DNA of 64,000 bases from Escherichia coli (GTDB lineage: Bacteria; Pseudomonadota; Gammaproteobacteria; Enterobacterales; Enterobacteriaceae): assembly GCF_024700885.2 (NCBI RefSeq), contig NZ_CP117016.1; one strand, written 5' to 3'. Made by a program: the position numbers and the translations under genes. This document shows, one piece after another, positions 35,419-42,359 of this stretch. The notes under the pieces were generated by a model. It saw only the letters and a list, made by a program, of their open reading frames with translations, searched no databases and had not been told where the DNA came from. Position 1 is the stretch's first letter, and the number at the start of each line of letters is the position of its first letter.

Positions 35419-35503
35419 GCCGAAGTGGCGAAATCGGTAGACGCAGTTGATTCAAAATCAACCGTAGAAATACGTGCCGGTTCGAGTCCGGCCTTCGGCA
35501 CCA
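35419..35503 (+). tRNA. leuX: tRNA-Leu (CAA), complete, 85 nt with encoded CCA
   Basis: GCCGAAGTGGCGAAATCGGTAGACGCAGTTGATTCAAAATCAACCGTAGAAATACGTGCCGGTTCGAGTCCGGCCTTCGGCACCA. It has a long variable arm and anticodon loop TTCAAAA. Confidence 0.97.
35479..35503 (+). repeat. direct repeat copy 1 (att core inside leuX 3' end)
   Basis: GGTTCGAGTCCGGCCTTCGGCACCA, identical to 41077-41101. Confidence 0.95.
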
Positions 35504-36016
35504 AGTCACTAAATTCCTTACAATACAGGTAGTTAGACAATAAAATCTGTCTCTTTTGCCTGTAAGAAATGCTCTGTTATGTCCCTTGAAAAAGCCGCTG
35601 TGGTTGATAGTGGTAATTGGGATGTTAACTCATAGCGGCGTGTAGTTCCAAGCGTCAAACACGTACTGACTCAACTTGAAAGCTATGACGTAGCCACTGT
35701 CTCTAAACAATCCCAAAAACTTTTAGTGAAGCGCATTTTAGCCCGATGCCCCCGTTCTGCCGCTGTCGCGAGACGCCGCAGGGGATAAACAGGTTTATGG
35801 TGGTCACGGTACTTGCAGACCATATGCAAGCTCTGCCAGCGGTTCGGCCTCGCTCCCCTTGGGTACATGGTCATCCTGATAAGCCTCACTAACTGACATA
35901 ACTGTGATGTAGTCGCCAGAGGCTCCGCTTGTTGTCTTACCACCAACGGGGCTTTATGGATTCTATTGCGGTATGTTTGAAAGTGCGCGGGGGTTCATTC
36001 CCGCGCGTCCGGCGCT

Positions 36017-36931
36017 TTATGGTAAGTATTTAAGTATTTCTGCTGCCCAGTTTACACGGTGGATGACACGGGCATGGTGCAAGTTTCCGTCTAGTATTTC
36101 GGCTTTAGTTAGCTGGGATAACTGCTGCCAATTATTGTTAAGTATATAAGTTGCGTTATTACATTGTGAGCTTTCTAGCACGTAAATGTTTTGGCCTGTG
36201 AACCCAAATATCACGTAGCCTTGGAACCCAGCTTGCCCAACCGCTACGAAATCTGGTTTTTTACTATTGATAAGTTCAAGTCTGCCTTCAACAACAGCGG
36301 TATTGCCCTTTCCCCTGATCTTAATAGCTGAAAGGATTTTTGAGCCGATAGTACTCCAAGGCTGTTGACCCTGAGGCAGGAGGCTCCAGTTTAGTTTTAT
36401 AGATTTACTTTTAACGATGGTATTAAGTTGGTCGTCAACAGTTTCGCACAACCCAAAAAGCTCTAAAAAAAGATTAATGCAGTGAGCCACTAACTCTTTG
36501 TTGTTAGCTGTCAAACTTAGCTTTGGAGAGATGATCAACTTCTCCCCTTGAAGATTCTCTACAATCTTTAACTCTATGCTTGGTGGAGGGGTGAGGATTC
36601 TCTTGTAGCGCTTATACTCAATTTCACGAGTGTCAGTAACTTCTTGAGTTGCGCCCCCTCCGATCCATTGCTTTCTAGTCCATGAAATTTGTCTGTATGC
36701 AGTTTCTTTAGGTGCTGTTTTGTCAGGTACTGATTTGCCATTAGCATTGAATCTGGTTATTGGCCCTAAAATCTTGGGGAGGACTTCTTCACCTAAAGCT
36801 CTTTGACTTGAGAAACCAATAGAGTCCGTTTTCCCCGCATCTGGCAAAGAATGTGCAATGTAGATATCACGGCCATCAAAGTTAGGTATGTAATTATCAA
36901 TATTTCGAATACGCTTTTTCTGAATAAGCAT
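36017..36931 (-). CDS. orphan 304-aa protein, no family recognised
   Basis: Long AT-rich ORF with SD AAGGAA 7 nt upstream of the ATG. A GCGCGGG..CCCGCGC hairpin lies after the stop. No motif that I can assign. Confidence 0.75.
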   Translation of the reverse strand: MLIQKKRIRNIDNYIPNFDGRDIYIAHSLPDAGKTDSIGFSSQRALGEEVLPKILGPITRFNANGKSVPDKTAPKETAYRQISWTRKQWIGGGATQEVTDTREIEYKRYKRILTPPPSIELKIVENLQGEKLIISPKLSLTANNKELVAHCINLFLELFGLCETVDDQLNTIVKSKSIKLNWSLLPQGQQPWSTIGSKILSAIKIRGKGNTAVVEGRLELINSKKPDFVAVGQAGFQGYVIFGFTGQNIYVLESSQCNNATYILNNNWQQLSQLTKAEILDGNLHHARVIHRVNWAAEILKYLP

Positions 36932-38480: not shown

Positions 38481-39326
38481 ATGGCTTACACAGCAACTGT
38501 TATCCCTGTAATGATTGCTTCTCCTGGTGATGTCGCTGAAGAGAGACAAGTCATTCGTGAAATGATCCATGAGTGGAATGATATAAATTCAGCTCGTTCA
38601 AAAGTAATGTTGACACCAATTGGATGGGAAACTCATACATCACCCGAATTAGGAGTTAGGCCTCAGAAGTTGATTAATCAAAGATTATTAGTAGATTGTG
38701 ATTTATTAATCGGTGTGTTTTGGACTCGTCTAGGCTCACCGACTGGGAACGAGGCCAGCGGAACAGTCGAAGAAATCCACCGTCATTTGAATGCGGGAAA
38801 ACCGGCAATGATTTACTTTTCCTCAAAGCCTGTTGCCCCTGAAAGCCTTGATAGAGAACAATATGAGTCTCTTAAATTGTTCAAAACTGAGTGCATGCAA
38901 AAGGGATTGATAGAGTCTTTTAATGACTTATCTGATTTCAAAGACAAAGTCCGTAGGCAACTTTCGATAATTATTTCTAGTAGCCCTTATTTGTCTTCTC
39001 TTATATCTACCATTAACAATTCTCCTGATGCGAATACAAGTCAATCTTTGCCAGAAAGTAATTTGTCCGCCGATGCACTCAGTTTGCTGAAATTGGCATG
39101 TGTCGATGATAGCGGAACAATTTATGTGATAAGGCATTTAGGTGGCACGGATATTCAAGCGGGAAATCAATCCTTTGGTGGAAGTTCGGCTAGAGAGGTA
39201 GCCCGTTGGGAGGGCGCACTTAACGAACTGTTATCCTTTGATTATGTGATTGAAAGAGGGGCAAAAGGACAAATGTATTATGTTACTCATAAAGGCTGGA
39301 CATTTCTTGAATCTTTAAATGAATAA
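38481..39326 (+). CDS. DUF4062 / TIR-like (nucleoside 2-deoxyribosyltransferase-like) N-terminal domain protein with an unknown C-terminal domain
   Basis: N-terminal VMIASPGDVAEER ... CDLLIGVFWTRLGSPTG..ASGTVEEIHRHLNAGKPAMIYFS matches my memory of the DUF4062 pattern. Lies 13 nt after the recombinase stop with SD GGAGAG upstream. Confidence 0.6.
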   Translation: MAYTATVIPVMIASPGDVAEERQVIREMIHEWNDINSARSKVMLTPIGWETHTSPELGVRPQKLINQRLLVDCDLLIGVFWTRLGSPTGNEASGTVEEIHRHLNAGKPAMIYFSSKPVAPESLDREQYESLKLFKTECMQKGLIESFNDLSDFKDKVRRQLSIIISSSPYLSSLISTINNSPDANTSQSLPESNLSADALSLLKLACVDDSGTIYVIRHLGGTDIQAGNQSFGGSSAREVARWEGALNELLSFDYVIERGAKGQMYYVTHKGWTFLESLNE

Positions 39327-39360
39327 TTAAATGCGAGGCCATTACATAAGTTTATTTTTG

Positions 39361-39390
39361 ATGTGAGGGTGAATTCCCTCACATTTTTAT
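39361..39390. terminator. bidirectional terminator between convergent genes
   Basis: ATGTGAGGG-TGAATTC-CCTCACAT hairpin with T-runs on both sides. Confidence 0.7.
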
Positions 39391-39881
39391 TCGAAAGAGG
39401 CCGCAATGACTTCTCCTGTTTTTGCGTTGAAAACACAAAAGTATTGAAGCGGAGCTAGCATCCCCAAGCCGTTAACTACCTTAGCTTGTTGCCCAAATGC
39501 CTGAATAATCTTCGCATTCTCATCGTGCCAGAGATAAGTATTAAATACAGGCGCTTCGCTTTCTTGCCACACATGGCGAAACTTCGCTTTCTCATCCATT
39601 ACCTTTTTGCACTCCCTGACCGGGTTATGGTGCGTTTTCGCATAGCATTCCGGGTTGTCATCTGCACATACGATATCTTTTCGTGCTGTCTGATGCTCAG
39701 CACCTACAGCAGAAAAGGCGCATACGCCCAGCACCAATGAGAGAGTGCCCAGAGCACCCCATACAGTTGCGCGTAGCGTGCTGATGTGCTGCTTTGATAC
39801 AGCATGGGCAACTACACTATAACTGGCCCAGCTAATCGCGGCTCCCGCTGCAATCGGTAGTAAAAAGTCTGCTCCCGTCAT
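39387..39881 (-). CDS. small membrane protein (2 predicted TM helices plus a Cys-containing soluble domain), unknown function
   Basis: Start chosen at MTGADFLLPIAAGAAISW with SD GAGGGAA upstream. A second hydrophobic stretch is VWGALGTLSLVLGVCAFSAV. Confidence 0.65.
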   Translation of the reverse strand: MTGADFLLPIAAGAAISWASYSVVAHAVSKQHISTLRATVWGALGTLSLVLGVCAFSAVGAEHQTARKDIVCADDNPECYAKTHHNPVRECKKVMDEKAKFRHVWQESEAPVFNTYLWHDENAKIIQAFGQQAKVVNGLGMLAPLQYFCVFNAKTGEVIAASFE

Positions 39882-39941
39882 GATTCCCTCACTTTCCAAA
39901 CCACATCGCGCCTGATAGCGAACGCTGGTGACGCCCAACCG

Positions 39942-39955
39942 ATGATGATCATCAT
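39942..39955. promoter_or_regulatory. perfect 14-bp palindrome in the divergent promoter region (candidate XRE operator)
   Basis: ATGATGATCATCAT (contains GATC), about 60 bp upstream of the 2-TM gene start. Confidence 0.4.
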
Positions 39956-40121
39956 ACTTGTTGGGTTTTAAATGTCACCATTGGTGTTTGTTTTGAATCA
40001 AAAAGGATTGTCATGATACAGCCGATGAATGCTAGTGACTAAGCTCGCTGACGTGAGATTGGATTCAAAATATCTCATATGGAGCGTGGCCTTACAGTGG
40101 TCAAAATTGCACATTCAGTGC

Positions 40122-40586
40122 ATGAAAAAATCCCTGAGAATACAGTTTGGCGAGCGGGTAAAAGAACTGCGCATTGCCACCGGATTGAGCCAGGAGGCCT
40201 TTGCCGATCGGTGCGGGTTTGCACGTAGTTATATGAGCAGAATTGAACGTGGTGGCTCTAATGCGTCTCTGGATGCGATTGAGGTGCTGGCTAACGCTCT
40301 GAGCGTTGAGCCGTGGCAGTTGTTAGCGCCTGGCCCATCTGAAGATAACGACTCGGAACTGTTGGTTCCATACGCAGCCGATGGTTCCTGTTTTCACCCC
40401 GGTTTGGCGAGCACCCGTGATGGCTCGTTTGGCGTAGGTGATAAAGCGGCTCAGAAGCGTTTTGGCACGTTTGCTGAAGCTCTTGAGTATCTTCGTAGCA
40501 TGGAGACAGCAAAATGGCGTAGGCCTAATCCTAGCGGCAACTGGGGTATCGTATCAGCGGTTCGGTGGGACAAACTGAGAAAGTAG
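40122..40586 (+). CDS. XRE-family HTH regulator with an approximately 85-aa C-terminal extension
   Basis: MKKSLRIQFGERVKELRIATGLSQEAFADRCGFARSYMSRIERGGSNASLDAIEVLANAL is a canonical Cro/C1 HTH. The start is uncertain: there is no clear SD, and an alternative start lies at 40029. Confidence 0.75.
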   Translation: MKKSLRIQFGERVKELRIATGLSQEAFADRCGFARSYMSRIERGGSNASLDAIEVLANALSVEPWQLLAPGPSEDNDSELLVPYAADGSCFHPGLASTRDGSFGVGDKAAQKRFGTFAEALEYLRSMETAKWRRPNPSGNWGIVSAVRWDKLRK

Positions 40587-40739: not shown

Positions 40740-41076
40740 CTTTGGCTCTTAATGGCTTAATTCATATAAATAACATTGAGTTAAATAGTTATTCTGAACA
40801 AGGTCTGCCGGGGTCTAACTGGTTTCAAAATCCGAACGCAGTGGCGTTTATTCAACGTCCACATAGCTGACAAATGTTCTTTCCTCCCGACTCGGCAGAC
40901 CTCCAGAAACATTAAAAGGCAGGTATGGCACGTTGATGTTTTATGCCGCCACGAACACTCGGTTTGATTCCGTCCAGCGGATCAAACTTAATATGTAGCC
41001 CCTAGAACAAAAAGGTCCTACGATTGCTCTCTTAACAGCTAACAGGAACGTGATTACAGCAGGTTATAGAGACTTA

Positions 41077-41101
41077 GGTTCGAGTCCGGCCTTCGGCACC
41101 A
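41077..41101 (+). repeat. direct repeat copy 2 (leuX 3'-end remnant)
   Basis: GGTTCGAGTCCGGCCTTCGGCACCA with no tRNA body upstream. Confidence 0.95.
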
Positions 41102-41114
41102 AAAGTATGTAAAT

Positions 41115-41287: not shown

Positions 41288-41734
41288 ATGGCATTAACAG
41301 ATATCAAAGTCAGAGCAGCCAAGCCAACGGATAAGCAATATAAGCTGACTGATGGTGGCGGTATGCATCTGCTTGTCCATCCAAATGGTTCTAAGTACTG
41401 GCGTTTGCAGTACCGTTATGAGGGAAAGCAAAAAATGCTGGCACTTGGGGTTTATCCTGAAATCACACTAGCGGATGCCAGAGTACGTCGTGACGAGGCG
41501 CGTAAGCTGCTTGCGAATGGCGTCGATCCGGGAGACAAAAAGAAAAATGATAAGGTTGAACAGAGTAAAGCACGAACCTTTAAAGAAGTCGCGATTGAGT
41601 GGCATGGCACCAATAAAAAGTGGTCTGAAGATCACGCCCATCGTGTGCTAAAAAGTCTTGAAGATAATCTTTTTGCAGCGCTTGGTGAACGTAATATCGC
41701 TGAGTTAAAAACTCGAGATTTATTAGCACCTATT
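41288..41734 (+). pseudogene. intB: P4-type tyrosine integrase, N-terminal approximately 149 codons only
   Basis: MALTDIKVRAAKPTDKQYKLTDGGGMHLLVHPNGSKYWRLQYRY... is the conserved P4 Int/IntB N-terminus. Similarity stops after ...KTRDLLAPI, and no catalytic R..HxxR..Y domain follows. Confidence 0.85.
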
Positions 41735-42359
41735 GTTCCTTTAACCATCCGCAATGGCCAACGGTTTACAGAGCATAATACGAATAGCCGTAGAGCCAGC
41801 CAGTTACGGTGGTCGCGATGGTGTGTCCGCCAGAAAATCACCACGAATACCAGAATCGCGGCACTGACCAGAAAATGATAAACAGGAAACACGGGGAGGT
41901 TCACTTTGCTTTCTCCTGTAGTATTTTCTGTAGGTTCTGAACCGGTTCGAGCGGGGTTGTGAGGCTGATGGCAATCCCCGGGCTCTTCCTGCATGTTACA
42001 CTGGTACTGCAACAGGGGGCCTTCGCTCCTATGACATTACTCAGTATTTTCACTACTACACCCCATCTGCCATCCATAACAACCGATTCACCCCCTCGGG
42101 AGGCGTTGTTGCCCGTCACCCGGACAGGCATCGTTATGGACTTCTCTTGTTGCACGATCGATCAATTGTTATGCATGCTGACACCACTACCCCGGTGGGT
42201 ATGACCGATGCCTTTCTCACTCTCTTCCCGGTCATCGTCGGCCTTCCCCGTTATTGTGGCGTGTCGGCACCATCGACGGCATTTCGATGGCTGCTCAGTG
42301 TTCACTCACGTTACGGCCCGCATAACCCATTGACTTCCTGAAGAAGTCGTTTCAGGGAG

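Follow-up and report, generated by a model that had tools for sequence, protein, structure and literature searches.

What does an XRE-family regulator do when it is kept, across a family of integrative islands, back to back with a gene for a small envelope protein, and what would such a protein be for? The question is raised by a divergent gene pair in a 64,000-nucleotide stretch of Escherichia coli DNA (hereafter the window, meaning the whole stretch that was analysed), which covers the chromosome around tRNA-Leu(CAA) (leuX), beside yjgR and ahr. A first-pass annotation of this DNA had described the pair as a small membrane protein and an XRE regulator, transcribed away from each other across 240 bp that carry a perfect 14-bp palindrome at 39942-39955, and this layout holds in every respect. 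The answer to which we give an even chance is that the regulator (hereafter XRE) is an autoregulator of the controller-protein type known from restriction-modification (R-M) systems, fitted with a second domain, which would switch the divergent envelope-protein gene within an island backbone. The features on which this proposal depends at its regulator side are the following (aa, amino acids; HTH, helix-turn-helix):

40122..40586, plus strand: XRE regulator, 154 aa, with an HTH at residues 8-68, a linker at 69-78 and an uncatalogued domain at 79-154 (40356-40583) carrying the motif WRRPN..GNWG
40071..40102, plus strand: C-box-like tandem candidate operator TATCTCATATGGAGCGTGGCCTTACAGTGGTC, made up of a left site (OL, 40074-40084), a CGTG spacer (40085-40088) and a right site (OR, 40089-40099)
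40110..40115, plus strand: CACATT, conserved, at -12 to -7 from the XRE start codon, the putative -10 of a leaderless XRE transcript
39387..39881, minus strand: membrane protein, 164 aa, with two hydrophobic helices (one strong, one moderate) ahead of a folded domain that has four conserved Cys

The regulator and its operator-like box

The AlphaFold model of XRE (mean pLDDT, the predicted local distance difference test score, 88.5) shows two domains joined by a low-confidence linker (residues 69-78). The first of them (residues 8-68) matches the Pfam family HTH_31 (E 1.9e-14), the rest of the protein having no Pfam match, and is homologous to known controller (C) proteins of R-M systems: its nearest relative is C.AhdI (47% identity), which is also the top sequence match in the PDB (E 1.5e-11), while the top PADLOC match of XRE is 'Control_protein'. 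The recognition helix reads ARSY, against DRSY in C.AhdI, and the family as a whole comprises more than 443 clusters.

A profile of the C-terminal domain served to collect 72 loci with XRE homologues, and the DNA upstream of these genes was aligned. A 32-bp box stops 19-20 nt short of the XRE start codon in about 45 loci from gamma- and beta-proteobacteria, whose XRE proteins are 47-100% identical and in which the remaining spacer and flanks are unalignable. Its consensus is TGTCWCNWTTRGWG-CGTG-GCYNTTNAGTGGWC, the CGTG (box positions 15-18) being present in 33-35 of 35 distinct boxes, and when the loci are scanned with a position weight matrix (PWM) derived from the box, the top-scoring site of each lies at -51/-52 relative to the XRE start. 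The published C-box reads GACT-N3-AGTC-N4-GACT-N3-AGTC with TG and CA flanks, and its best-conserved part is the 4-nt spacer between the operators, which is CGTG where the helix is DR(T/S)Y (PMC2504287, PMC2175313). The box found here has the same layout of four half-boxes, with N3 within each operator, N4 between them and the inter-operator spacer as its best-conserved part, and it shares the TG and CA flanks. In the window the candidate operators are centred at -43/-28 from A40122, 15 bp apart, and across loci at -43/-28 or -44/-29, to be compared with the ahdIC operator centres at -44/-29 from a leaderless transcription start (PMC2275141).

There is no Shine-Dalgarno (SD) sequence before XRE, and positions -11 to -7 from its start codon hold a conserved ACATT; together with the AhdI-like operator spacing, this points to an XRE transcript that is probably leaderless and autoregulated. 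XRE thus resembles C proteins of the C.AhdI/C.PvuII type in its xRSY helix, in the lack of an SD sequence with a probably leaderless transcript, and in a candidate tandem operator at its own gene with four half-boxes, N3/N4 spacing, CGTG and centres near -44/-29 from the start codon. By analogy with these proteins, C.AhdI-like dimers of the HTH domain would bind OL and OR, activating the regulator's own gene from OL and shutting it off from OR. The C-protein switch is among the best-understood timing circuits of mobile DNA.

The divergent gene and its product

How would such a regulator reach the gene on the other side of the spacer? Three features of the spacer bear on this:

39973..39986, plus strand: single OL-like candidate operator, TGTCAC-CATTG-GTG, overlapping the -35 of P_mem
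39951..39978, minus strand: predicted sigma-70 promoter of the membrane-protein gene (P_mem), with -35 GTGACA (39978-39973), a 16-nt spacer and -10 TATGAT (39956-39951)
39942..39955, no strand: palindrome ATGATGATCATCAT, overlapping the P_mem -10, not conserved as a palindrome

P_mem agrees with the consensus at 10 of 12 positions, homologous loci conserve the two hexamers, and the P_mem -35 sits within the OL-like site. In a Yersinia island a homologue of the membrane protein is not adjacent to XRE, yet the same promoter-operator cassette is kept, and this, with the -35 overlap, fits control in trans by XRE, most simply repression. With a single site lying over the P_mem -35, accumulated XRE would throttle the membrane-protein gene; expression of the membrane protein would then be highest at first, when the element has newly entered a cell free of the regulator, and would be held low afterwards. 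The arrangement recalls C.Esp1396I, for which a tandem site at its own promoter is likewise accompanied by a lone site elsewhere: through this third operator C.Esp1396I represses the promoter of the methyltransferase gene as well, and the two systems may share a logic in which an early gene is on and is then turned down. The difference is that the second promoter here drives an envelope protein instead of a protective methyltransferase.

The palindrome, which the first-pass annotation had singled out as a possible binding site, loses its significance on comparison. The window holds 8 perfect 14-bp palindromes, so that one in the spacer is unremarkable and at chance level, and it is perfect in 2 of 20 distinct homologous spacers, the rest retaining 4-6 of the 7 symmetric pairs. 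What is conserved is the right half only, CATCAT(AC), whose minus strand is the P_mem -10 (TATGAT). As an operator it was rejected, on chance frequency and lack of conservation.

The membrane-protein open reading frame (ORF) is preceded by a strong SD sequence, GAGGGAATCATG, and the RefSeq start annotations of both genes agree with the ORF starts. Two hydrophobic helices had been noticed in the product: the second (residues ~43-61, Kyte-Doolittle hydropathy 1.94) is a strong predicted transmembrane (TM) helix, and the first (~7-25) is moderate, at 1.54. The loop between them, before the strong TM helix, holds the positive residues K30 and R37. The four Cys reported for the soluble part are indeed there (C72, C79, C91 and C149), with one more in TM2; C91 and C149 are invariant, and C72 and C79 are lost jointly in two homologues. 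This paired behaviour of the conserved Cys suggests that there are two disulphides and that the domain is periplasmic, and hydropathy, the positive-inside rule and the paired Cys point to a predicted periplasmic domain. Residues ~70-164 are modelled at pLDDT >90 as two helices on an antiparallel sheet. The protein would accordingly be anchored in the inner membrane and expose a disulphide-bonded alpha/beta domain to the periplasm.

The fold of this domain bears a weak resemblance to cystatin, PepSY and NTF2-like folds, which are of the inhibitor type. Could the protein then be an immunity or inhibitor protein, whose periplasmic domain neutralises an incoming toxin or enzyme that acts in the periplasm (a type VI secretion, colicin or contact-dependent inhibition effector, a lysozyme or a protease) and does not block DNA entry? 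Such a function would suit an exported, Cys-paired domain, and the alternative partners of XRE described below include many small proteins, lipoproteins or periplasmic ones, that have Cys pairs; against it, no cognate toxin gene lies near the membrane-protein gene in the contexts examined, and the surrounding cargo is anti-phage in type. We regard this as rather improbable. The most likely job of the membrane protein is, on the wider reading, envelope protection, either by exclusion of phage or element DNA or by immunity or inhibition in the periplasm.

Superinfection exclusion is a reasonable guess within this range. Superinfection- and entry-exclusion membrane proteins and lipoproteins include T4 Imm, P22 SieA, HK97 gp15, T5 Llp and TraS/TraT, and the membrane protein resembles them as the small product of a mobile element, predicted to act at the envelope as an inner-membrane or lipoprotein component. 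No sequence similarity and no significant fold similarity to superinfection- or entry-exclusion proteins was found, and the gene differs from theirs in not being phage-borne. The family is a narrow one, with 144-157 clusters at 55% identity or more that are nearly confined to Enterobacterales, a profile search returned no distant homologues beyond Enterobacterales-type sequences, and no Pfam, NCBIfam or PADLOC model matches it.

The first-pass annotation had also offered a decayed prophage immunity region, in which a repressor of the CI/Cro type would accompany a gene for superinfection exclusion. Phage repressors often have XRE HTH domains, and PHROGs includes a full-length family for the membrane protein (phrog_20749, function unassigned there). 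The phage collections themselves speak otherwise: the membrane protein has zero matches in 50,697 phage genomes and a single one among 2.9 million IMG/VR contigs, on a contig that carries the same island pair, while XRE has one full-length match in the phage-sequence search, on an unannotated contig of 9.7 kb from faeces. In none of the contexts examined does the element include genes for phage structure or lysis, and the HTH is nearest to C proteins and not to repressors of the CI type. This origin is very unlikely.

ORFs were called and clustered in the 72 loci and in further E. coli contexts, and the position divergent from XRE proved to be a slot. It is occupied by the membrane protein in 22 loci, by a 247-283-aa protein with a signal peptide (cluster c7) in nine loci including O157:H7, and by other small proteins elsewhere. 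A signal peptide, a lipobox or a TM helix is predicted in about 13 of the 17 distinct families of partner, so that the constant feature is a C-like XRE with a divergent exported protein; judged by these predicted signals, the partner gene is interchangeable and its product nearly always exported. In the c7 loci the spacer is ~116 bp and the partner's -35 lies within OL itself. In the O157:H7 locus (L005), an XRE 90% identical to that of the window is paired with a 257-aa signal-peptide protein, in a leuX island shared with Zorya II. The XRE/exported-protein module goes unmentioned in a 2026 paper on O-island 172 of O157:H7 (PMC13463889).

A regulated slot of this kind also invites an abortive-infection or toxin-antitoxin-like account, in which a membrane-damaging effector is silenced by XRE until the C-terminal domain senses infection and lifts the repression. 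The operator-like site overlapping the partner -35 would serve such silencing, the membrane protein is small and membrane-anchored, and the C-terminal domain occurs in defence islands and fused to nucleic-acid enzymes (see below). However, the slot elsewhere holds soluble periplasmic proteins and lipoproteins of unrelated families; the extracytoplasmic domain predicted for the membrane protein is well folded, strongly conserved and of a disulphide type, unlike a pore-former; the genes are divergent and do not form an operon; and the membrane-protein gene persists on plasmids where XRE has been split off by IS1. We therefore hold this account to be still more doubtful than the immunity one. A type II toxin-antitoxin pair with an XRE antitoxin of the HigA/HipB type was rejected, the genes being divergent, the partner exported and no toxin family matching the membrane protein.

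The copies on plasmids that look like XRE alone or membrane protein alone are the same pair, split by IS1. On two plasmids (L006 and L007) IS1 and IS26 have broken up and rearranged the pair; the recombinase remains beside the membrane-protein gene on one side, and a DUF6998 gene beside XRE on the other.

Two further elements of the spacer deserve a place here:

39908..39925, minus strand: small hairpin in the 5' untranslated region (UTR) of the membrane-protein gene; a single pair covaries, which is weak evidence
39990..40071, no strand: 10-bp inverted repeat, (G/A)TTTTGAATC (39990-39999) and GATTCAAAAT (40062-40071), with conserved arms and a 62-66-bp variable spacer

The covarying pair of the 5' UTR hairpin is AU in six sequences and GC in five, and the hairpin could be a stability or attenuation element. 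The arms of the inverted repeat lie between the two promoters, each preceding an operator-like site and oriented with its own gene. RNA structure in the variable spacer between them was considered and dropped, no covariation being found there; the arms are invariant and thus uninformative in this respect. The resemblance of one arm to the leuX anticodon arm (14 of 16 matches) is, by our estimate, at chance level for a 6-kb region.

The C-terminal domain and the proposed switch

The first-pass annotation could not place the part of XRE that follows the HTH, and neither can the current catalogues: residues 79-154 have no match in Pfam, NCBIfam, PADLOC or PHROGs. A profile of these residues nevertheless gathers 538 clusters (50% identity level) at E <= 0.001. 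Of the 150 best-scoring representatives, whose domain architectures were counted, some 33 consist of the domain alone (62-115 aa), and these stand-alone copies likewise match nothing in Pfam or NCBIfam; 21 have ASCH at the N-terminus and six the HTH, while one is joined to a UDG domain and one to a GIY-YIG-like region with a DEDD exonuclease. ASCH-fused or short copies directly precede complete type I Zorya operons (ZorA-D), and copies are also found beside Druantia III (DruH) and beside a type I R-M system with an RtcR-like CARF regulator, in Marinobacter, Nitrincola and their relatives (L043, 9830-18020; L049, 200-19936; L044, L051, L060 and L066). As the domain occurs both alone and fused in defence islands, these 76 residues are, by their distribution among sequences, an independent, widespread and defence-island-associated module, and the fusion partners (ASCH, UDG, exonuclease) suggest a link to nucleic acids. 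In XRE the domain would most likely add a DNA- or ligand-sensing or an oligomerising input. With at least 538 clusters at 50% identity, it is worth considering as a regulator or sensor in several defence systems.

In what does XRE then depart from known regulators? C proteins of R-M systems are single-domain proteins of ~70-100 aa, whereas XRE, at 154 aa, is twice as long and has the extra 76-aa domain; it has no linked endonuclease or methyltransferase, and its consistent partner is a divergent exported-protein gene. Another comparison is with CapH/CapP and further XRE-type regulators of defence systems, BrxR/CapW being an example of a functional analogue: XRE, too, has an HTH with a C-terminal extension and stands beside defence genes, and PADLOC capH matches its HTH at E 1.6e-10. 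It differs from them in that no CapP-like peptidase gene is found in the contexts examined, in lacking a WYL domain, and in a C-terminal domain that resembles no PADLOC entry.

Several points weigh against a controller-type switch with an envelope-protein output. The half-boxes diverge from GACT..AGTC, reading CAC/CTC..GTG/GAG (in the window, OL is CTC-N5-GAG and the partner-side site CAC-N5-GTG). R-M genes are found neither in the islet around the pair nor in the typical contexts of XRE loci, and a same-strand gene within 250 nt downstream of XRE is present in 16 of 46 loci; the classical logic leading from C protein to endonuclease is thus absent, and an R-M-like arrangement with a downstream effector was rejected as inconsistent. 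Both the activation and the repression attributed to XRE are drawn wholly by analogy. At the membrane-protein side, the first hydrophobic segment is moderately hydrophobic at best. Finally, a profile search of the PDB with the C-terminal domain gave no match, and a circularly permuted AP2-like fold, considered for it, was abandoned at an hhalign probability of 0.3%. XRE would work like a C protein but should not be classed as an R-M controller.

If the proposal of a C-like switch is true, it extends the controller-protein principle beyond R-M systems, to an island backbone that would express and then damp an envelope protein. For the regulator of this module, operator candidates with exact positions are at hand; of 5,426 complete E. 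coli genomes, 478 (~9%) have the near-identical pair in full. Should the membrane protein have no phenotype, the finding would shrink to an island regulator of the usual sort beside a passenger gene. Its main interest lies in the uncatalogued domain and in the recurrent, regulated slot for an exported protein.

Island backbone, cargo and the leuX islet

Where does the pair belong? In Enterobacterales the islands follow a common order: a 650-aa integrase (DUF6538 and Phage_integrase), variable genes, NIPSNAP, again variable genes (often including c5, a conserved island protein of 308-337 aa with no Pfam match), a serine recombinase, variable cargo, the exported partner (minus strand), XRE (plus strand) and sometimes further cargo. 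The serine recombinase accompanies XRE in L002-L030, L040, L046, L047, L050, L075 and L078, and recombinase, c5 and XRE co-occur in beta-proteobacteria too. Among the cargo of the variable slots are a DUF4062/PDC-S60-like protein, an AAA ATPase, a reverse transcriptase, UvrD with AAA, DUF6998 and DUF8370. XRE with its exported partner is a conserved backbone module of integrative islands with variable defence cargo, and the first-pass suggestion of a regulator and small envelope protein module in an island rich in defence genes is supported. Diverged XRE homologues are also found at leuX in O157:H7.

Defence islands that have integrase or recombinase genes only, and whose mobility is unclear, have been described in E. 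coli (Hochhauser et al. 2023, PMC10121019). The islands described here are like these in their sites (tRNA and other hotspots), in combining integrase and recombinase with variable defence cargo, in having no other recognisable mobility genes and in conserved backbone genes that flank the cargo; they differ from the P4-satellite hotspots in not being P4-like. A search of the literature found no description of a backbone made of the DUF6538 integrase, NIPSNAP, c5, recombinase, partner and XRE, and it appears to be undescribed.

A backbone gene conserved with the integrase, the serine recombinase and c5 might also be a master regulator of the island, controlling excision, replication or transfer in the manner of ImmR or SetR, the partner being an incidental moron. 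XRE stands directly upstream of c5 in two beta-proteobacterial loci, which would suit such a role. PWM scans argue against it: the box occurs only at XRE's own promoter, with weaker sites at the partner gene, and none upstream of the recombinase or integrase genes; moreover, XRE is kept in an islet without integrase. The extra high-scoring sites in the islands lie inside an HNH gene and look fortuitous. To this role we assign a low probability, similar to that of the immunity protein discussed above.

A broader proposal joins the several threads: the domain named after its WRRPN motif would be a new sensor or DNA-binding module of defence islands, and the cassette an unrecognised envelope barrier against phages and mobile elements, fixed as a module in an undescribed island family of gamma- and beta-proteobacteria. 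As a whole this is tentative, and we consider it unlikely to hold in all its parts.

The window's own copy of the island is a small islet, delimited and filled as follows:

35479..35504, plus strand: attL, at the 3' end of tRNA-Leu(CAA) (gene 35419-35503), copy 1 of the 26-bp direct repeat GGTTCGAGTCCGGCCTTCGGCACCAA
37907..38467, plus strand: small serine recombinase (Resolvase and HTH_7), a conserved backbone gene accompanying XRE in gamma- and beta-proteobacteria
38481..39326, plus strand: DUF4062-like/PDC-S60-like protein, variable cargo between the recombinase and the exported-partner gene
39360..39385, plus strand: predicted terminator, a hairpin with a T-run, between the convergent DUF4062 and membrane-protein genes
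41077..41102, plus strand: attR, copy 2 of the 26-bp leuX repeat, perfect

The 5.6-kb islet is bracketed by these perfect direct repeats of the leuX 3' end. Neither a tyrosine integrase nor an integrase remnant was found within it, which leaves two readings, a decayed island or a remnant that can be mobilised in cis. It derives from the island family with the DUF6538 integrase and serine recombinase. The truncated P4-type integrase at 41288-41878, beyond attR, is part of the next island.

The neighbour of the membrane-protein gene had been called TIR-like and convergent. Convergent it is, but the protein is DUF4062-like (Pfam E 8.9e-5, under the cut-off; PADLOC PDC-S60, E 1.3e-26). A two-gene defence system, in which the membrane protein would act with this neighbour on the TM-plus-TIR model, had been evoked; it draws on the adjacency of the genes in the window and on the match of DUF4062 to the N-terminus of the defence candidate PDC-S60. 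The slot is however variable: DUF4062 (cluster c20) stands beside the membrane protein in three of the 22 loci that have the latter (L001, L012 and L026), the first of which is the window's own island, and in the others its place is taken by an AAA ATPase, a reverse transcriptase or other genes, or is empty. Near-identical backbones occur with other cargo or none, and the two genes are convergent with a terminator between them. Such a partnership is hardly credible.

The homologue of the membrane protein that is commonest in E. coli (71% identity) belongs to a compact island flanked by ygeR and the ETT2 type III secretion genes (L084-L088), in the order integrase, NUDIX or GTPase cargo, recombinase, membrane protein, XRE and DUF8370, the DUF8370 start being 51 nt downstream of XRE on the same strand.

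In the left part of the leuX islet lies a 304-aa ORF (36017-36931, minus strand) with no match in Pfam, PADLOC, PHROGs or NCBIfam, and the 0.9 kb that separates it from the recombinase holds no long ORF. A third, degenerate copy of the leuX repeat is present at 40961-40986.

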